From: Candidatus Vogelbacteria bacterium
GTDB taxonomy: Bacteria > Patescibacteriota > Minisyncoccia > Phycocordibacterales > XYD1-FULL-46-19
Direction of reading: 5' to 3'
NCBI GenBank assembly: GCA_903864935.1
Contig: CAIPHT010000004.1
Span: 1-42,721, forward strand
Length of the DNA: 42,721 nucleotides
In this document: one piece after another, positions 10,225-17,828 of the stretch
Layout: every line of letters starts with the position of its first letter
How positions within the stretch are numbered: the first letter of the stretch is position 1
The notes under the pieces: model-generated
What the model was told of the DNA's origin: nothing
The model's input: only the letters and a program-made list of their open reading frames with translations
Database searches by the model: none
Program-made: the position numbers and the translations under genes

Positions 10225-10261
10225 GCAAAAACCCCGCGCCTAACCGGCGCGGGGTTTTTGC
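10225..10261 (+). terminator. Intrinsic terminator (bidirectional type)
   Basis: gcaaaaaccccgcgcc-taacc-ggcgcggggtttttgc. Confidence 0.85.
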
Positions 10262-10366
10262 TTGACCCACTTTCTCTCTGGTGTTATGACTAAGAAGGAA
10301 TTGTCGTCAGCTTGTTGCTGACTTGAAATATCCAAACTCAAACCCTAAGGGGAAAGGAAATAAGCC
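10262..10366 (+). promoter_or_regulatory. Shared promoter/leader block, copy A (diverged)
   Basis: TTGAC..TGGTGTTATGACTAAG..GAATTG..gtcagc-ttgtt-gctgac-TTGAAATAT..aaaccc..GGAAAGGA; homologous to 14657-14760 and 15816-15919. Confidence 0.8.
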
Positions 10367-11080
10367 ATGGAACTTTTTGTTGAGTTGTCGGGTCTGGGGC
10401 ACTATGGTGTCTGCACTATTGTCCCGCCGGACCTTCTTCGTGCGCTTCGAGACATGATTGAGAATTCTGCTCATGCGGCGAAATTCAAAAGCTCAATCAG
10501 CGAGACTGGCCCCTTCGGTGTCGACGAAGCTCTCCGCCCCAACTTCTATGGGGACAAGGAAGAAGCTCTTAAGGTGATCTGGATTCCGGGGAAACTTGAG
10601 GGGGCCATGCTTTCGCACGAGATCTTGAGGCAGTGCGCTTCTCTGCTCGAACCTCAGTCTCCGCTGCCGGTTGATGACAAGACCTTGACTTTGGAGGTCG
10701 CCGTGGGGAGGTCTGGTAGTGATGGCTGGTATGTTCACGCTCGTTTCAGCGCTCCTGTCTGGGACGTGATCGAGGGACCCTTTTTCCCAGAGATCCTACC
10801 TCACATCAATCGGGAAATTCGTGACTGGTGGGAGGACTATAATGGGTGGAGGGGAAAGCGTGAGTGCACGACCCTCTTCAAAGGGAGAGATGGTCCGACT
10901 TTGCAAATCTACCAATCCTCTGGTAATGGCTTGTGGATCGCTGGCAGCCGGAAGGATCGGGAACTTGGCCAAGAATTCCAGTTCTACGACCATAACACCG
11001 ATTACCATGCACAGGCCTTTGCCCACATTATTGGCCTGTGCTTCGTCTTGAAACACTGCCGACAGTCTGTCGGTGCCTGA
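10367..11080 (+). CDS. Orphan hypothetical protein
   Basis: 237-aa ORF with SD, own promoter block and downstream hairpin; no family recognised. Confidence 0.75.
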   Translation: MELFVELSGLGHYGVCTIVPPDLLRALRDMIENSAHAAKFKSSISETGPFGVDEALRPNFYGDKEEALKVIWIPGKLEGAMLSHEILRQCASLLEPQSPLPVDDKTLTLEVAVGRSGSDGWYVHARFSAPVWDVIEGPFFPEILPHINREIRDWWEDYNGWRGKRECTTLFKGRDGPTLQIYQSSGNGLWIAGSRKDRELGQEFQFYDHNTDYHAQAFAHIIGLCFVLKHCRQSVGA

Positions 11081-11183
11081 GTTTGGTCCTGGCCCGCCCT
11101 CGCCTCCGGCGAAGGCGGGCCTTCTTTTTTTATGCTACAATTCACCCTGTGGAGTAGTTTGCTATACTCCACAGGGTAAACAC

Positions 11184-12440
11184 ATGAACAAAAATTCAGG
11201 AAATTATGATGTTATTGTGATTGGGGGTGGTCCCTCAGGGATGATGGCGGCGGGGCGAGCGGGCGAGCGCGGGCTCAAGGTTCTTCTCTTGGAAAAAAAT
11301 CGCGGGCTTGGCGACAAGCTCAAGATTACCGGTGGTGGCCGTTGCAATATTACCAACGCGGAGATGGATAAGGAAATTTTGCTCCGGCATTATGGTGCGA
11401 GCAAAGATTTTCTTCATTCGGCTTTTGCCCAATATGGCGTAGAGGATACTTTTAAATTTTTTGAAGCACGGGGTTTGCCTTTGGTGATTGAAGCGAGGAA
11501 ACGCGCTTTTCCTAAAACGCAACGCGCCGAAGATGTCTTCAAAGTGCTCGAAAAATATTTAAGTGACAATAATGTGGTAGTAAAAACTGGGGTGAGAGTC
11601 TCAGAGATTAGGCCTGGTGAAGGTAAGATTAAATCTGTCGTGGCTGGTGGTGTCGAATATGAAGCGCGAGCCGTCGTGCTTGCCACGGGTGGCTTATCGC
11701 ATCCAGAGACGGGGGCGACGGGCGATGGCTTCTCGTGGCTCACGCGGCTTGGCCACACTGTTAAACAGCCGACCCCTGATATCGTACCTTTGGCTGTCAA
11801 AGAGAAATGGGTTAAAGATCTCTCGGGACTTTCGCTGTCATTTATGAAAATTACTTTTTTCTTGGATAAGAAGAAGACTTTTTCTAAAACTGGCAAAATT
11901 CTCTTCACTCATTTTGGTCTCTCGGGGCCTTTGATTATGAATAGCGCTCGAGCGGTTAAAGATTTGCTTAAGGCTGGGGTGGTGACCGCCGAGATAGATA
12001 CTTATCCGGATACCGATTTGGGCGCGTTAGAAAAAAATATGATCAAAATTTTTGATCAGAATAAAAATCGCGATCTCAAAAATATTATGAAAGAGCTCAC
12101 GCCCGAGGGTCTGGACGAGACCGTAATGGTCCTGCTTAAAAATATTGATTTCAATAAGAAGGTGCACAGTGTGACAGTGGAGGAGAGAAAGCAACTTACT
12201 CACTTGCTCAAAGCCTTACCGCTCACCATCACCGGCCTCCTGGGCTTCGAGCGCGCCGTCGTCTCGGATGGGGGAGTAATGCTCACCGAGATGGATATGC
12301 GCACCATGCAATCTAAGCTTTTTAGTAATTTATACATTACCGGAGACCTTCTTAATATCACTCGCCCGTCGGGCGGTTATTCGCTCCAACTCTGCTGGAC
12401 GACCGGTTTTGTCGCGGGGGATAAGCTCTTGCCTAGCTAA
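11184..12440 (+). CDS. HI0933/YhiN/BaiN-family NAD(P)/FAD flavoprotein
   Basis: GGGPSG, KITGGGRCNITN, ATGGLSHPETGATGDG, LFTHFGLSGP, GGYSLQ. Confidence 0.93.
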   Translation: MNKNSGNYDVIVIGGGPSGMMAAGRAGERGLKVLLLEKNRGLGDKLKITGGGRCNITNAEMDKEILLRHYGASKDFLHSAFAQYGVEDTFKFFEARGLPLVIEARKRAFPKTQRAEDVFKVLEKYLSDNNVVVKTGVRVSEIRPGEGKIKSVVAGGVEYEARAVVLATGGLSHPETGATGDGFSWLTRLGHTVKQPTPDIVPLAVKEKWVKDLSGLSLSFMKITFFLDKKKTFSKTGKILFTHFGLSGPLIMNSARAVKDLLKAGVVTAEIDTYPDTDLGALEKNMIKIFDQNKNRDLKNIMKELTPEGLDETVMVLLKNIDFNKKVHSVTVEERKQLTHLLKALPLTITGLLGFERAVVSDGGVMLTEMDMRTMQSKLFSNLYITGDLLNITRPSGGYSLQLCWTTGFVAGDKLLPS

Positions 12441-12502
12441 TTTGGGCAGTATCTGGTATAATTAGGGTATATTAGTAATTAACAATATTTTAATAAAGTA
12501 TT

Positions 12503-12757
12503 ATGGCTACAACTAATTCAGCTTTCATGAAGCCTATGACCATCAGCGAAGAACTCGCCGAGGTTGTTGGTAAGGGTCCAATGCCTCGTTCAGAGGTTGT
12601 TAAGGCTCTTTGGGTCTATATTAAGAAGCACGATCTTCAGGATCCTAAGAACAAGCGCAATATTGTTGCTGACGATAAGCTTAAGGCCGTCTTCGGTGGC
12701 AAGGATGTCGTCAACATGTTTGAGATGACCAAGCTCGTCTCCAAGCACCTTTCCTAA
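12503..12757 (+). CDS. Stand-alone SWIB/MDM2-domain protein
   Basis: SEELAEVVG...PRSEVVKALWVYIKKHDLQDPKNKRNIVADDKLKAVFG. Confidence 0.93.
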   Translation: MATTNSAFMKPMTISEELAEVVGKGPMPRSEVVKALWVYIKKHDLQDPKNKRNIVADDKLKAVFGGKDVVNMFEMTKLVSKHLS

Positions 12758-12764
12758 GATATTT

Positions 12765-12808
12765 AAACAAAACCCCGCGGCGCTTTTGCGTCGCGGGGTT
12801 TTGTTTTT
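12765..12808 (+). terminator. Intrinsic terminator
   Basis: aaacaaaaccccgcggcgc-tttt-gcgtcgcggggttttgttt. Confidence 0.85.
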
Positions 12809-12824
12809 ATCAAGAATGCCCAAC

Positions 12825-12863
12825 ATCAAAAATGTGCAACACCGAGTGTTGCACATTTTTGAT
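12825..12863. repeat. Palindromic junction repeat, copy 1 (REP-like)
   Basis: atcaaaaatgtgcaacac-cga-gtgttgcacatttttgat with 18-bp perfect arms; abuts TTGACT. Confidence 0.9.
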
Positions 12864-12998
12864 TGACTTTATTTGTCGAACGGGGCAATCTGATAATGGA
12901 AACTAGGTCCGTGGACTGCTACATAAGCATCTTCTTACTTGGCAAGGGGTGTGATGCCATTCGGGCGTGTGTAGATAAGCGGATACAGGAGAATTGAC

Positions 12999-13715
12999 AT
13001 GAGAGTAGAGTTCCACCAGAGGGCGAATAGTTACGATGCCGCCAGAGCGGCAAGATCGGCAATCTCAAGGCACTTCCTTCAAGAGATTAAGCGCTCTGAT
13101 GAGCCGGGCGCAACGGGGAAAATTCGTCTTGGATCTATCGATGGAGTCTCGCTTGGAGAAGACTTTCCCCAATTGAAGGGCTGGAGCAGTGGACTTCAAT
13201 CAGTGATGGCGAGCTTTGCCGATCTTAAGAGTGGCCTAATGAACAGTTCTTTGGATTTGGTCATCGAGCACAATGGTCATCAGCCTGTCGCTATTGGAGG
13301 ATCCTTCTTCCTTCGTGTTCCTTTCGGTGACGGTATTTTTCTTGAAGTGAATTTTAGGGAAGAGCTTGATGGCTCGTGTGCTGACCCGATGGAAATTCTG
13401 GGACCGCCAACGTCAGAGAATCTCACTCTTTCTCGAGTTCTCATGGCTGGGCAGAGGAAGTTGACGGTCGTTGAGCCTAAGTTTCCAGACAGCGATTGCC
13501 GGTCCATGGCGAGCGCCTTGACTCGATCCTTGCAGAAGAGACAGGGATACTATGGCTGGGAGAAAGAGGGCACTCTTGATGGCCAGGATCTTCATTCCGA
13601 GCTTCCCCTCCGGGCAGCGAGGCTTGAGCTGACCCTGGTCGAAGAAGGGTTCCACTTCACCCACGGGACTCTCGGCCCGACATTGCGTCACCTGGCCGAG
13701 CAGTACCTGACCTAG
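12999..13715 (+). CDS. Orphan hypothetical protein
   Basis: 238-aa ORF, SD AGGAG, long leader, own terminator; no family recognised. Confidence 0.75.
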   Translation: MRVEFHQRANSYDAARAARSAISRHFLQEIKRSDEPGATGKIRLGSIDGVSLGEDFPQLKGWSSGLQSVMASFADLKSGLMNSSLDLVIEHNGHQPVAIGGSFFLRVPFGDGIFLEVNFREELDGSCADPMEILGPPTSENLTLSRVLMAGQRKLTVVEPKFPDSDCRSMASALTRSLQKRQGYYGWEKEGTLDGQDLHSELPLRAARLELTLVEEGFHFTHGTLGPTLRHLAEQYLT

Positions 13716-13737
13716 ACGACACCGCTTCATCATAGAG

Positions 13738-13779
13738 AACCGCCCCACTAGGGCCTCTCTTGGTGGGGCGGTTTTTCTT
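13738..13779 (+). terminator. Intrinsic terminator, related to 306-347
   Basis: aaccgccccactaggg...tcttggtggggcggtt followed by a T tract. Confidence 0.8.
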
Positions 13780-13793
13780 CTGGAAAAAAACAC

Positions 13794-13824
13794 TTGACAA
13801 AAAGATTATCTTAAGATAATCTTT
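13794..13824 (+). promoter_or_regulatory. TA promoter with autoregulatory operator
   Basis: TTGACA-17-TAATCT overlapped by the perfect 24-bp palindrome aaagattatcttaagataatcttt (13801-13824). Confidence 0.8.
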
Positions 13825-13828
13825 AGAT

Positions 13829-14047
13829 ATGACTAAAATAATTGGTTTGAAGGAATTAAGGGAGAACACCGAGACTTATTTGACCCAGGTTAAGAAAGGT
13901 AATAGCTTTTTAGTTTTGCGTCGTTCTGAGCCAATCTTTAAAATCTCACCCGTTGATGAGGCCGAAGAGCTTTGGGAGAAGGTAATCGATTTTACTAAGA
14001 TCAAAAAGGGTGGTGTCTCTCTTGATCAGATTCTTGCCCGACTTTAA
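13829..14047 (+). CDS. Type II antitoxin, Phd/YefM family
   Basis: IIGLKELREN...VKKGNSFLVLRRSEP pattern; immediately upstream of a RelE-like gene. Confidence 0.85.
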   Translation: MTKIIGLKELRENTETYLTQVKKGNSFLVLRRSEPIFKISPVDEAEELWEKVIDFTKIKKGGVSLDQILARL

Positions 14048-14050
14048 TTT

Positions 14051-14293
14051 ATGGATAAAATAAGCAAAGCTCTGGCTAAGTTAACAGAAAAGGAAAAAGA
14101 AGCGATTGCCGAAATTTTTGTAAAAATTAAAGCTGGCAAAATTGCTGGCTTAGATCTTAAGAAACTTAAGGGCTACGATGATATTTATCGCGTGCGTTTT
14201 GGTAAATGGCGAGTGATTTATAGAACAGAAAAAGGGAATAAGATTTTTCTCGTCTGGTTTGAAAGACGAAGCGATAATACTTATAAATTTTAA
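14051..14293 (+). CDS. Type II toxin, RelE/ParE family
   Basis: KKLKGYDDIYRVRFGKWRVIY and C-terminal RRSDNTY. Confidence 0.88.
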   Translation: MDKISKALAKLTEKEKEAIAEIFVKIKAGKIAGLDLKKLKGYDDIYRVRFGKWRVIYRTEKGNKIFLVWFERRSDNTYKF

Positions 14294-14333
14294 TCAAAAA
14301 ATGGCCAACACCGGGTGTTGGCCATTTTTTGAT
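14293..14333. repeat. Palindromic junction repeat, copy 2 (covariant)
   Basis: atcaaaaaatggccaacac-cgg-gtgttggccattttttgat; abuts TAGACA. Confidence 0.9.
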
Positions 14334-14426
14334 AGACACAGGGGATTTTTGTTGTGCTAATAATGGCTCAGGTTTTGGACAAAGAATAGCAATGTCTCAA
14401 ATTCTCTACGGAGAGTAGGTGATTGT

Positions 14427-14570
14427 ATGACAGAGAAAAGATTGACCCCCAAACAACGCAAAGTGGTGATGGCCCTGGACCGGCGCATCTCTCTTTGCGA
14501 CGAGACCACCGTAGGGGAACGCACTCGAGAGCTACTAATCAAGCTCCGCCAACAACTTGCTCTGTCCTGA
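14427..14570 (+). CDS. 47-aa orphan protein (not in the ORF track)
   Basis: MTEKRLTPKQRKVVMALDRRISLCDETTVGERTRELLIKLRQQLALS*; SD AGGTGA upstream and hairpin plus T6 at 14589-14620. Confidence 0.6.
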   Translation: MTEKRLTPKQRKVVMALDRRISLCDETTVGERTRELLIKLRQQLALS

Positions 14571-14622
14571 TACTTCTCAGGACAAATCCACCTCGAGCCA
14601 GACGGCCCGGGGTGTTTTTTAT

Positions 14623-14653
14623 AAAATGTGCAACACCGAGTGTTGCACATTTT
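14623..14653. repeat. Palindromic junction repeat, copy 3
   Basis: aaaatgtgcaacac-cga-gtgttgcacatttt, identical core to copy 1, followed by tgaTTGACC. Confidence 0.9.
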
Positions 14654-14656
14654 TGA

Positions 14657-14760
14657 TTGACCGTTTTTCTTTTTGGTGTTATGACTAAGGCAGAATTGCT
14701 ATCGGCCCAAGGCTGATTTGAAATATATGACCATCTAAACCCAAACCCCCGGAAGGAGGA
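14657..14760 (+). repeat. Shared promoter/leader block, copy B
   Basis: 104 nt with 3 mismatches to 15816-15919. Runs from TTGAC through hairpin atcggc-ccaag-gctgat and TTGAAAT to SD GAAGGAGGA. Confidence 0.95.
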
Positions 14761-14767
14761 TAGACTT

Positions 14768-15757
14768 ATGTTGCCTGATGTTGATGAGAAAAAACAGGCC
14801 TATAGGGCGATTGCCTCGTTACGTTATATCGATTGGGAGACGGTAGTCAAAGCCGCTCAAAAGTTTCTCCCCGAAGAGGAGAGAACCAGTGAGTACCTTC
14901 GCCTCGTTGACGCTGAAGTCTCTGATAGCCATACTCTTGGTCTTTTCAAGACTCTGGCCCTGTTGCCCGAAGCGGAACGGGTGGTAAAAGTCAAAGAGCT
15001 CATCCAGAACCCTCGACTTGTTAACCATATAGCTGAGCTGATTAATCTTCTGCCCGAGGCAGAGAAAGCCAATGAGAACAAACGACTGTTCGACTCTTAT
15101 CTCGCTAATGGCCACCTGTCTTCGGCTCAAGAGCTTGGTCGGGCAATTGGTCGGAATCTTACAGACAAGGATGTTCTTTTTGTCATTGAGGAAGCAAAAA
15201 GGTACCACTACGGCGAAGTCTATATGGCCAAGGCACTGGACTTTCTCTCGGAGCCTTCACGAAGCGAAGAACTGAACAAGCTTTTGGTGGGGATGATAAC
15301 CAAGAGCTCCCCCAAAGCGATCTTGGAAGTTGCCCTGATCGTTGGGCACGACCTTACCGATAAAGAAAAGGAGCTCATTCTCGAAAGCTGTCTCTCTCGG
15401 TCAGCGCTTTCTTATTCCAAGGAAGCCGCCAAACTTCTTGGCCGGGAATTAACGTTACTAGAGGTGGAGAGAATCTTTGAGGGCCAACTTGTCGTTCCTC
15501 ATTGCCTCGAGCTTGCTCTTGGCACCGCCCAAATTCTCCCCGAACCGAACAGGACCATTTGTCGGGAGAAAATCTTGGCAAGGGCTCTTCAAACGGAGAA
15601 TTACTTTGATTCGGTACAAAAAATAGTCAAAGTAATTGGCCGGGAATTGACACGACCAGAGCTTCTCGCTTTTCTTGAACGGATATCTGGCGAAGAGACG
15701 TATCGACAATCTTCTGTGGCCACCGTTGTCAACGAACTCCTAAAGGGAACTGACTGA
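14768..15757 (+). CDS. Orphan alpha-helical repeat protein
   Basis: Recurring LPE..R and (I/V/L)G(R/H).LT..(E/D) motifs; strong SD. Confidence 0.8.
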   Translation: MLPDVDEKKQAYRAIASLRYIDWETVVKAAQKFLPEEERTSEYLRLVDAEVSDSHTLGLFKTLALLPEAERVVKVKELIQNPRLVNHIAELINLLPEAEKANENKRLFDSYLANGHLSSAQELGRAIGRNLTDKDVLFVIEEAKRYHYGEVYMAKALDFLSEPSRSEELNKLLVGMITKSSPKAILEVALIVGHDLTDKEKELILESCLSRSALSYSKEAAKLLGRELTLLEVERIFEGQLVVPHCLELALGTAQILPEPNRTICREKILARALQTENYFDSVQKIVKVIGRELTRPELLAFLERISGEETYRQSSVATVVNELLKGTD

Positions 15758-15778
15758 CCCCCCCACCAAGAACAAAGA

Positions 15779-15817
15779 GGCCCCGCCTCGAAGTTTGAGG
15801 TGGGGTTTCTTTTTTTT
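15779..15817 (+). terminator. Intrinsic terminator
   Basis: ggccccgcctcga-agt-ttgaggtggggtt; the T tract runs into the next TTGAC. Confidence 0.85.
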
Positions 15818-15919
15818 GACTCTTTTTCTTTTTGGTGTTATGACTAAGACAGAATTGCTATCGGCCCAAGGCTGATTTGAAATATATGACCATCTAAACC
15901 CAAACCCCCGGAAGGAGGA
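15816..15919 (+). repeat. Shared promoter/leader block, copy C
   Basis: Near-identical to 14657-14760; identity stops right after the SD. Confidence 0.95.
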
Positions 15920-15926
15920 AGAAGAT

Positions 15927-16622
15927 ATGAATTTCGCCAGTGGCGCTATTACGCCTGGGTACTACTATTTGTATATGCCCAATACCTTGAGACGCTTGCG
16001 TCTTGAGATGGATGCTGACGGCATTGCTGCCGATGAGATTTTGGATCACACAAGCCCTGATATGTTTTGTGGCAGGGAGTATCCTCACTCGAGAAACCTT
16101 GATCTCGGCAACGACCAATTTGGGCAGAGCCTGTCGCCGGAACTTTCTGCCTCCGTTTGCAAAATGACCGAGCTCTTGAAGTTCGATGGTGCCAGGTGGT
16201 TCAGTCTTCACGCTCATTACTCCTTGTTCCCGGAGCTTGCCGAGTATCTAGTCCCCGAGCTGCTCTATGGGGAAGATGATCGTATTGATGAGGAGAGACA
16301 GCGGATGAAAAAAGAACTAAAGAAAAAGAAGTTCTCACGTCGCTCCGTGAAGATGCCCTTCCAAGAGCTTGATGAAGATTTTGGCTATCAGGATTACGCT
16401 TGTGATAACCCTGGTCGAACCATTCTTGAGCGGTTGAATTACGAACTTTGGGAAGGACGGTCACGCTTCGGGCAGGTCAATTCTCGCGAGATCCACTCAA
16501 TGGCCACGCCCTATCAGGTCGTCGAGTTCAAGAAGCTCGTCTTAGACGGCTATTTAAAAGAGTGCGAAGCAGCATCTCTTCTATCGAACGCCGGATTTCT
16601 TGAAGTTATTGAGAGCTTCTGA
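15927..16622 (+). CDS. Orphan hypothetical protein
   Basis: 231-aa ORF, strong SD, no visible similarity to 14768-15757. Confidence 0.75.
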   Translation: MNFASGAITPGYYYLYMPNTLRRLRLEMDADGIAADEILDHTSPDMFCGREYPHSRNLDLGNDQFGQSLSPELSASVCKMTELLKFDGARWFSLHAHYSLFPELAEYLVPELLYGEDDRIDEERQRMKKELKKKKFSRRSVKMPFQELDEDFGYQDYACDNPGRTILERLNYELWEGRSRFGQVNSREIHSMATPYQVVEFKKLVLDGYLKECEAASLLSNAGFLEVIESF

Positions 16623-16646
16623 CTATTTTCATGGCTACACAACAAA

Positions 16647-16692
16647 CCCCGTCGCGCGCATGCGCGACGGGGTGTTTCTTTTTATTTTTTTT
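16647..16692. terminator. Terminator between convergent genes
   Basis: ccccgtcgcgc-gcat-gcgcgacgggg followed by a T-rich tract. Confidence 0.8.
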
Positions 16693-16694
16693 GA

Positions 16695-17162
16695 TTAAGC
16701 TTTAACTTTAGTCTTGGTCGAAGTTTTTGCTTTAGCTTTTGTTGCTGGCTTGGTCGCTTTTTCAGAACACTTCGGACAACGGCAGCCGTGCGGTTTGATA
16801 TACTCGTTGAAGTATTCTTTGCCATAGTCGTAGAGAACTTCTTCACCCTTTTTTATCTTGCGCAGTGACATAATAAAGACTTGGCCTTTAATAATCTCGG
16901 CTTCAGCATTGGGCCGGCACGAGTGATTGAAGTAACGGGCCTTATTCTCTCGGATGGAGCCATCAATCGTTTTCTTTGAATTTATCTCGAAGAGATACTT
17001 ACTATTAATAGTATATTCTTCTTCAGGCGAGATGGTGCGACCGAAGTACTCCATCAGGCAGGCGCCCTTAGGGATATCTTCGCCGGCAAAAATGCCGAGA
17101 CCAGCAATTGAACGTTTCACTAATAATTTATAATCACCGGGTGTATATTTTGTTTTTTTCAT
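16695..17162 (-). CDS. SET-domain protein-lysine methyltransferase
   Basis: GLGIFA, ARYFNHSCRPNA, IKKGEEVLYDY, post-SET CRCPKC, Lys/Thr/Ala-rich tail. Confidence 0.93.
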   Translation of the reverse strand: MKKTKYTPGDYKLLVKRSIAGLGIFAGEDIPKGACLMEYFGRTISPEEEYTINSKYLFEINSKKTIDGSIRENKARYFNHSCRPNAEAEIIKGQVFIMSLRKIKKGEEVLYDYGKEYFNEYIKPHGCRCPKCSEKATKPATKAKAKTSTKTKVKA

Positions 17163-17207
17163 ACCAAGGCATTATACCTTAAGCGCTTTTATTGGTAAAA
17201 TAGGGGA

Positions 17208-17828
17208 ATGAAGAAGGAGACTTTTGGCTTAACCAAAACGGAGTTAAAAATTTTAAAAAAGCTCTCGACCCCGATTAAAATTCAGGATTGGCTTGACGCC
17301 GTGCCTCTTAATCATGAGAGGGACGGTGAGACTTATATGTCCCCGCGCAAAGCTCTTCGCGAGAACAAAATGCATTGCTTGGAGGGGGCCCTTGTCGCGG
17401 CGCTGTGCCTTGCTCTCCAAGGCGAAGAGCCACTCCTTCTCGATCTTAAGGCGCCCAAAGATGTTGACCATGTTGTGGCTCTATATAAGAAGAACGGTTA
17501 TTGGGGGGCGATTAGTAAGACTAACCACGCGGCGCTCCGCTTCCGTGACCCGGTTTATAAAACGATTCGCGAATTGGCCGTGTCATACTTTAATGAATAT
17601 TTTGATAATGGCACAAAGAAAAAAACTTTGCGGAGTTATGCTGGCCCATTTAATCTTAAGAAATTGGGGACAGATTGGGTCACGACTGAAGAAGACCTCT
17701 TCTCTTTACCTTTTGTTCTCGATGCTTTGCCTCACAAGCAAATTTTCCCTAAAGCGAATGAGAAATTTATCCGTCCGGCCGACAAGATGGAGCTAAAGGC
17801 GGGGAGCATTGTCGAGTGGCCGAGTTAA
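17208..17828 (+). CDS. Conserved hypothetical protein, possibly transglutaminase/NAT-like fold
   Basis: SPR...HCLEGAL, DHVVALY, WGAISKTNH...RDPVY motifs. The fold assignment is tentative. Confidence 0.65.
   Translation: MKKETFGLTKTELKILKKLSTPIKIQDWLDAVPLNHERDGETYMSPRKALRENKMHCLEGALVAALCLALQGEEPLLLDLKAPKDVDHVVALYKKNGYWGAISKTNHAALRFRDPVYKTIRELAVSYFNEYFDNGTKKKTLRSYAGPFNLKKLGTDWVTTEEDLFSLPFVLDALPHKQIFPKANEKFIRPADKMELKAGSIVEWPS

Follow-up and report, generated by a model that had tools for sequence, protein, structure and literature searches.

REP-type hairpins in a lineage-specific island of self-contained gene units of a Candidatus Vogelbacteria genome: probable terminators and bystanders rather than capture sites

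Introduction

What do repeated palindromes do at the borders of small, mostly unknown genes in a tiny bacterial genome: do they capture the genes, or do they settle beside them? The question is raised by one locus of a Candidatus Vogelbacteria genome, in which the convergent genes for a SWIB-domain and a SET-domain protein are separated by five gene units, including a toxin-antitoxin (TA) pair, and by three near-identical palindromes. An initial annotation of this locus had read the palindrome as a module insertion hotspot, used by an enzyme acting in trans. We examined the whole 42,721-base contig that carries the locus (contig C4, hereafter the window), from a genome, G000, of 825 kb in 20 contigs with 45% G+C. 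The reading that we favor, with somewhat better than even confidence, is a different one: the island is a pile-up of autonomous units, and the palindromes are repetitive extragenic palindromic (REP) hairpins, spread by REP-associated tyrosine transposases (RAYTs), that are terminators and bystanders and not capture sites.

According to this reading, self-contained units, namely four orphan units and one unit with a Phd/ParE-type TA pair, would have piled up in the terminator spacer of two conserved convergent genes. The palindromes would be non-autonomous REP-type repeats spread in trans by an IS200-like, RAYT-like Y1 enzyme of the HUH class; they would have settled in the SWIB-SET spacer as in other spacers of G000, as colonists of a permissive spacer, and would there terminate transcription between the units instead of serving to capture them. 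The units themselves, we infer, arrived by recombination independent of the hairpins.

A lineage-specific island between the SWIB and SET genes

The island is flanked on the left by a SWIB/MDM2-domain gene (12503-12757, + strand; PF02201, 113.7 bits), which is conserved and kept in relatives, and on the right by a conserved SET-domain gene on the opposite strand (16695-17162, - strand; PF00856, 79.4 bits). Open reading frames (ORFs) and Pfam matches bore out the gene order given by the initial annotation, namely SWIB, orphan, Phd/RelE pair, an ORF of 47 amino acids (aa), orphan, orphan and SET, with all five intervening units on the + strand.

We fetched the SWIB locus in 13 relatives, with G005 not among them. 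In seven of the 13 (G002, G003, G004, G006, G007, G008 and G020), SWIB and SET are convergent, directly adjacent neighbors, as the initial annotation had supposed they might be. The adjacency holds in six of the seven same-genus genomes examined, the SWIB gene of G001 having another neighbor, and in six same-genus genomes the aligned blocks stand 48-156 nucleotides (nt) apart. This adjacency in relatives marks the stretch from about 12864 to 16694 (3.83 kb) as lineage-specific, that is, by sequence comparison, as an insertion. The SWIB-SET spacers of the seven relatives hold one hairpin each, except that of G007, which holds none. The hairpin of G004 is a single-copy one in an AAAAATG...CATTTTT frame, and that of G020 belongs to the family of another RAYT gene of G000. 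The spacer hairpins of G004 and of G008, the closest relative, were considered as multi-copy REPs and dropped, each being single-copy in the five genomes searched.

Palindromes at three of the six unit borders

The three palindromes are present at the claimed positions. Copy 1 (12825-12863) has arms of 18 nt around a 3-nt center (-24.3 kcal/mol, z -7.9), copy 2 (14293-14333) has arms of 20 nt around a single G (-27.9 kcal/mol), and copy 3 (14623-14653) has arms of 14 nt around a 3-nt center (-17.7 kcal/mol); all three are perfect and are listed without a strand. Copy 3, which is annotated up to 14657, has the same core as copy 1, and the likeness extends to about 14668, with 93% identity between the two copies and their flanks over 46 nt, in direct orientation; the sequence after copy 3, TTTTTGATTGAC, also follows copy 1. 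Copy 2 is a GGCC stem variant in which two stem positions are altered on both arms (TG/CA to GC/GC), and the + strand centers of copies 1, 2 and 3 read CGA, CGG and CGA. The near-identity of the copies, the compensatory changes in both arms of copy 2 and the constant orientation of the center, all noted at the outset, were confirmed. The core pattern occurs at three sites (six strand-matches) in the window against 0.03 expected, a count reached in 0 of 100 shuffles. Copy 2 starts at the last base of the toxin stop codon and is the sole hairpin 3' of the TA pair. Its variant core is present in 2 of 401 genomes of the order, and in G188 it lies inside an ORF that resembles methionyl-tRNA synthetase (named by eye from its N-terminus).

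Of the six borders, three carry the palindrome. The other three, orphan 1/TA pair, orphan 4/orphan 5 and orphan 5/SET, have ordinary GC-rich hairpins with T-runs: one closes orphan 1 (13735-13781, +; -31.1 kcal/mol) and one closes orphan 4 (15774-15812, +; -28.4 kcal/mol), both with no palindrome copy, and the third, with a long T-run, closes orphan 5 (16646-16694, +; -27.2 kcal/mol), forming the right end of the island and abutting the SET stop codon. The claim that each copy abuts the -35 box of the next module was upheld in part. With promoters judged by eye, TTGACT follows copy 1, TTGACC follows copy 3 and TTGATA overlaps the end of copy 2, whereas a consensus promoter scan lists no site there.

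Each unit begins with a TTGAC-type start directly after the preceding T-run, continues with one or more ORFs, and ends in a closing hairpin with a T-run. By this anatomy the units are autonomous, each with a promoter-like start, an ORF and a terminator-like hairpin. In addition, orphans 4 and 5 have a common 110-nt promoter/leader (95% identity). Leader copy 1 (14651-14760, +) consists of TTGACC, 17 nt, a TG-extended TATGAC and a leader of about 80 nt with a small hairpin, and copy 2 (15810-15919, +) matches at 99% over 97 nt. A third, weaker copy (10255-10331 matches the leader at 75%) precedes an orphan of 237 aa (10367-11080) in a sixth unit, at 10247-11131 (+), which has its own terminator and lies outside the stretch initially annotated, between a cold-shock-like and an oxidoreductase gene; G008 has an unrelated spacer of about 270 nt at that place. 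The three leader-bearing orphans may be co-regulated, or the leader may be a portable expression module. The leader motif had no match in viral contigs and none in metagenome contigs.

Three observations stand against the view that the hairpin is an insertion hotspot or is needed for a unit to be where it is. Two relatives have the TA unit at other loci, with 77-78% nucleotide identity: G007 carries it between its oxidoreductase and SWIB genes, and G003 carries it behind another gene; at both loci its 5' boundary is the same, with the same TTGACA (TTGACAAAAGATTATCTTAAG), and is free of the palindrome. In G003 the toxin gene is not followed by a palindrome; in G007 a run of N interrupts the end of the TA unit. 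Unit 10247-11131 has no palindrome at either end. Unit 15810-16694, which carries the leader of the unit that follows copy 3, has no hairpin copy beside it. These hairpin-free borders and units, together with the copies in conserved spacers described below, are why we read the hairpins as probable colonists of spacers.

The palindrome core is paired with RAYT genes in relatives

The initial annotation had pointed out that REP palindromes are processed by HUH transposases, and in relatives the link was found. In G002, of the same genus, a 231-aa ORF with a match to PF01797 (Y1_Tnp; 32.2 bits, cut-off 23) is enclosed by two core copies that stand 713 nt apart. Among 41 related genomes, G000 included, sampled at one genome per species, the exact 17-nt core pattern is present in three (G000, G002 and G020). 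A 23-nt pattern with 20 specified bases was found in 84 stretches in a scan of one genome per species. From these, 80 loci were fetched, representing 72 distinct places, and their record titles name Paceibacterota, Sung-, Taylor-, Vogel-, Nealson- and Kaiserbacteria, Saccharibacteria-labelled bins and one Firestonebacteria bin.

A RAYT gene, homologous to the G002 protein, lies within 1.5 kb of the hairpin at 14 of the 72 places. Copies of the hairpin bracket the gene or lie within it at 12 places, namely in G002 and at 11 other Patescibacteria loci, and at eight of these all counted copies are exact. Likewise, 12 of the 14 distinct loci with at least two copies have them bracketing or within a RAYT gene, and two hold something else. 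The centers of the flanking copies are the same or one base apart on one strand at seven of the eight loci with an exact copy on each side of the gene. A hairpin that brackets a Y1 HUH gene is the defining layout of a REP/RAYT system, and by this layout the palindrome is a REP-type hairpin. As a separate observation, two copies in L103, a Taylorbacteria metagenome-assembled genome (1440-2490), stand inverted and 39 nt apart, as a REPIN-like doublet, with a third copy, in direct orientation, beyond the 945-nt segment that comes next.

G000 itself has seven PF01797 genes, all above the cut-off and none on contig C4. Five of the seven paralogs are flanked on both sides by their own private hairpin family; all seven match the G002 query at 26-41% identity, each with a different flanking family or none. 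The nearest to the window's hairpin is an intact RAYT-like gene (C17:10313-11026, - strand) that keeps the HUH motif and the catalytic Tyr and is flanked by a sister hairpin, which differs from that of the window at two stem positions and has nine copies in the genome. One sister copy (C17:10510-10532) lies in frame inside the RAYT ORF itself, read as NVQHPMLD. A tree of 21 sequences places this gene beside RAYTs that are flanked elsewhere by the window's hairpin, with weak support (86/82). In the alignment of these sequences, HxH (consensus MPNHFH) is kept in 21 of 21, and L060, with an ORF that diverges and stops early, is the only one to lack the tyrosine of SAY(I/V)H-NP. This pairing suggests that a RAYT would move the window's copies. 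The proposed link with an HUH transposase is therefore found in G002 and the 11 further loci, and in G000 no RAYT gene is flanked by the exact hairpin.

Copies across the genome and a probable terminator role

G000 has seven core copies, six of them outside long ORFs, as is usual for a short, multi-copy, mostly extragenic repeat. Three are in the window and the others are at C15:23878, C17:82707, C17:84041 and C18:8175. The idea that the palindrome marks captured modules did not hold up at three of these four other places, of which two are conserved spacers and one is inside a gene; the fourth is in a variable region. The copy at C17:82707 shares its spacer with three other repeats of about 36 nt, and the conserved genes on either side of this spacer keep their synteny in G008. 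The copy at C18:8175 is also in a spacer between conserved genes and, with its A and T tracts, occupies precisely the position of an unrelated hairpin and T-run that follow the orthologous gene in G008; in G004 this position holds a decayed copy. The copy at C17:84041-84063 lies in frame inside a 315-aa ORF (83917-84864), read as GVCNTKCCT. Genome-wide, 133 perfect hairpins with a stem of at least 10 were found in G000 against five in a shuffled genome, and several group into families.

The spacer of the C17:82707 copy is a curiosity in its own right. Within its 242 nt, after a 601-aa GTPase-like gene, four different repeats of about 36 nt stand side by side (C17:82539-82741; L132 3040-3242), three of which are multi-copy in all five same-genus genomes searched.

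Each of the window copies consists of an A-tract, a stem and a T-tract, with folds of -17.7 to -27.9 kcal/mol and z of -5.7 to -7.9, and copy 1 was listed as terminator-like. The layout of an intrinsic terminator, a stable hairpin with a T-run at a gene end, is present, and the most likely role of the window hairpins is that of intrinsic terminators between units, possibly in both directions. Copy 1 sits where G008 has a single-copy hairpin of equal total length, which matches it in the 9-nt outer arms but not in the inner 23 nt. The SWIB gene has in addition its own terminator, a GC-rich hairpin with a T-run (12765-12806, +; fold -35.4 kcal/mol), and G003 and G006 have the same kind of hairpin and T-run at that place.

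Weighing capture, recombination and non-mobile hairpins

Several observations weigh against the hairpins being bystanders. Against G008, the left breakpoint of the island falls at the 3' foot of copy 1. Seven bases past the palindrome (GATTGAC) are common to copies 1 and 3, as would be expected of a duplicated site, and TTTTTGATT is found at both ends of the island (12856-12864 and 16688-16696). Three of the seven genomic copies lie within 1.8 kb of the island with their centers in one orientation, and the copy at C15:23878 belongs to a variable stretch of some 4.8 kb to which nothing in G008 matches at the DNA level. In L103, two direct copies bracket 945 nt with an ORF that lacks Pfam and RAYT matches. 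Finally, G000 has no RAYT gene flanked by the exact window hairpin that would account for the spread of the copies, and such a gene could be missing from an assembly in 20 contigs.

Most of these points lend themselves to an explanation in which a RAYT-like Y1 HUH enzyme would act on single-stranded DNA, cutting it at the foot of a hairpin already in place and joining to it a foreign segment that itself ends in a hairpin, so that units would accumulate on the 3' side of each hairpin, with the hairpins as the joints. The left breakpoint, the direct orientation of the three window copies and the ORF in L103 are what such capture would leave. The direct arrangement at the seven of eight exact-flanked RAYT loci, as at the ends of IS200/IS605 elements, fits it too, as does copy 2, a rare sub-variant also present in G188, which would then have arrived separately and not have mutated in place. 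We nevertheless consider hairpin-guided capture unlikely: three of the six borders, the right end of the island among them, are without the hairpin; it is also missing at the TA unit of relatives and at two leader-bearing orphan units; three of the four other genomic copies are without a gene-sized insertion; only two of the 14 multi-copy loci hold anything besides the RAYT gene; and no unit was found elsewhere with hairpins attached. The clustering of copies has a parallel in the sister hairpin family, in which five of nine copies lie within 2.3 kb. A transposase-like target in TTTTTGAT was also considered and was dropped, as the 8-mer occurs 153 times on both genome strands. Were this explanation to hold beyond the present island, Patescibacteria RAYT enzymes and their hairpins would form a capture system for genes on single-stranded DNA, with a resident terminator hairpin as the landing pad to which hairpin-ended units join serially; this broader proposal is still more doubtful.

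Alternatively, the hairpins could act through their sequence identity, as short portable stretches of homology at which incoming or circular DNA recombines with a resident copy through host recombination, leaving direct repeats around the insert. Copies 1 and 3 (93% over 46 nt, direct) do surround 1.76 kb with orphan 1, the TA pair, copy 2 and the 47-aa ORF. Forty-odd bases are, however, very short for homologous recombination, and what the two copies share past the palindrome amounts to a T-run and a promoter box, TTGAC, both of which hairpin-free units also have. The assembled contigs of four sequencing runs from two studies were compared with the window, and a contig of one run, X3, bears on this point. 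This single low-depth contig joins 12862 to 15816, with a short side of 34 letters, and 14656 fits equally. It runs from hairpin sequence through the 5' portion of leader copy 1 into orphan 5, skipping orphan 4. Since it carries letters of leader copy 1, the joint points to recombination between the two leader copies (a deletion variant through the 110-nt repeat) or to an assembly chimera, not to a hairpin joint. At best the contig, with its low depth, two possible places and possible chimeric origin, would show that repeats here recombine. Overall, we regard homology-driven integration as improbable. The excision or circle junctions that the initial annotation had proposed to look for at the palindromes did not appear, in that no contig joint in the four runs could be assigned unambiguously to a palindrome. 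The contigs of run X5 leave orphan 1, the TA pair and orphan 4 uncovered, which has no bearing on their absence, and a relative in the second study, about 93-96% alike, holds orphan 5 and its leader.

Lastly, the palindromes might not be mobile at all, being ordinary look-alike terminators that arose by chance or convergence, or operators of one dimeric regulator of the downstream promoters. They have the shape of terminators, two of the three directly precede TTGAC, and the frame ATCAAAAA...TTTTTGAT (ATCAAAA...TTTTGAT) also encloses three unrelated hairpins in the genome, which makes it a generic frame. This explanation is scarcely credible, as 20 specified bases recur in 84 stretches across many Patescibacteria lineages and bracket RAYT genes, copies lie inside ORFs and between convergent genes where no promoter follows, and copy 2 alters both half-sites, which keeps a hairpin but changes an operator. 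Taken together, the evidence argues for a pile-up of autonomous units among RAYT-spread hairpins that would act as terminators.

Gene content of the island and neighboring features

Of the island genes, orphan 1 (12999-13715, +; 238 aa), the 47-aa ORF (14427-14570, +), orphan 4 (14768-15757, +; 329 aa) and orphan 5 (15927-16622, +; 231 aa) have no Pfam match. Orphan 1 has three homologs at 47-55% identity among 5.8 billion proteins and was found in none of 42 other genomes of the family, and by these matches it is a real but rare gene. A search of metagenome contigs for the loci of its relatives gave 240 pattern matches, none of which was confirmed. Orphan 4, helical-repeat-like with internal repeats, has one full-length homolog at 50% identity and weak matches to repeat proteins (58 proteins at E<=0.001 among 1.84 billion), and was weakly found in two of 250 other genomes of the order. 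Its DNA (14864-15661) contains a 24-nt unit three times and a 34-nt unit twice, as expected of a repeat protein. The searches returned no homolog of orphan 5 other than itself, and the second sequencing study includes a contig about 96% alike. No BLASTP match below E 6 was obtained between any two orphans, and none has a second copy in the genome. The 47-aa ORF, with AGGTGA 5 nt 5' of its ATG (by eye), is putatively coding.

The TA pair is a predicted type II system, a Phd/YefM-type antitoxin with a ParE/RelE-type toxin, as judged from domain matches close to the Pfam cut-offs. The small antitoxin (13829-14047, +; 72 aa) scores 27.2 bits for PF02604, below the cut-off of 29.8, and the small toxin that follows 3 nt later (14051-14293, +; 80 aa) scores 23.2 bits for PF05016, with a cut-off of 23. 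The promoter region (13795-13828, +) has TTGACA followed by a perfect 24-nt palindrome (13801-13824), which is likely an operator for autoregulation of the pair. In G+C content the TA pair stands at 0.36 and orphan 1 reaches 0.57, the value of the contig being 0.45.

An Rfam search of 12400-17300 gave sub-threshold, terminator-like matches only, and none for the shared leader. The small hairpin of the leader has one compensatory pair among its three copies (10247-10366, 14651-14760 and 15810-15919), which precede three unrelated lineage-specific orphans. Farther to the left, a hairpin of about 38 nt (ACCCTGTGGAGTA...TACTCCACAGGGT) at 11138-11176 separates a conserved TGCTACAAT promoter box from the start codon (ATG) of the oxidoreductase gene, and occurs again at C15:5433-5475. 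It is absent from G008 at that place, and many related genomes have copies about 90% alike; this seems to be a further dispersed hairpin family, located in 5' leaders.

Discussion

On the favored reading, the island would be an accretion of autonomous units in the spacer of two convergent genes, which bears on strain-specific gene gain in tiny genomes. Two findings stand apart from the fate of the units, namely that one 23-nt hairpin core is common to very distant Patescibacteria lineages, and that a genome of 825 kb holds seven RAYT paralogs, five with private hairpin families, with hairpins at terminator positions. For annotation, repeated palindromes at gene borders in such genomes would better not be read as cassette sites. 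If hairpin-guided capture were true after all, it would be a new route of gene acquisition, and its landing-pad form would build integron-like arrays of orphans and TA pairs in which no integrase takes part.

The closest known systems are the REP elements and their RAYT (TnpA-REP) genes, or REPtrons, such as the REP elements and bacterial interspersed mosaic elements (BIMEs) of E. coli and the REPINs (REP doublets forming hairpins) of Pseudomonas, as treated in several reports (PMC5581495, PMC3116915, PMC3337134, PMC3479197). REP/RAYT systems are well studied in Proteobacteria, and no description of them in Patescibacteria was found in the literature searched. The present hairpin resembles them in being a short, multi-copy, mostly intergenic palindrome that brackets a single-copy Y1 HUH gene (PF01797), in the several RAYT paralogs each with its own hairpin family, and in its terminator-like form. 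It differs in the small number of copies (seven to nine per family in 825 kb), in its perfect stems framed by A and T tracts, in the mostly direct orientation of the copies that flank a RAYT gene, and in copies that lie in frame inside genes, the RAYT gene included. In the two large REP superfamilies, one end of the repeat is tagged with GTAG or CGTC, in the account of PMC3733652; this tag is absent at the foot of the window hairpin, which reads AAAATGTG... By analogy with the known systems, a RAYT would putatively bind and cut the window hairpin as single-stranded DNA.

Elements of the IS200/IS605 group of insertion sequences insert beside a short target on single-stranded DNA, as outlined in PMC6006769, and hairpin-guided capture as framed above takes its mechanism from them. 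The likeness lies in the enzyme superfamily and in hairpins that flank the enzyme gene in direct orientation. Unlike in these elements, the enzyme gene with its flanks is single-copy and the hairpin alone is dispersed, and the left and right hairpins have the same sequence; no copy of a whole IS200/IS605-type element was seen among the seven G000 paralogs.

The island also recalls an integron array, as a one-directional row of small, mostly unknown genes with a TA pair among them and a folded site at some joints. The attC site of integrons is imperfect, about 57-141 nt long, has extrahelical bases and is present at every cassette joint, and the cassettes are promoterless. Here, the palindromes are perfect, 31-41 nt long, lack the attC form and stand at three of six joints, and the units have their own promoter-like starts and terminators. 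No tyrosine recombinase (PF00589) was found on contig C4, the two matches of the genome being at C5:5971 and C19:1193, so the initial statement that the sites are not attC and that the window has no integrase was correct. Contig C19, with 1,877 bases and a G+C content of 0.387, carries the second of these matches (35.5 bits) and possibly represents a piece of a phage or of some other mobile element.

In build, the units come nearest to the morons of phages, autonomous promoter-gene-terminator units inserted between genes. Like morons, they have their own TTGAC box after the T-run of the preceding unit, their own hairpin with a T-run, and a G+C content unlike that of their surroundings. Unlike morons, they lie not in a prophage but in the chromosome between housekeeping genes, and three of them share one promoter/leader.

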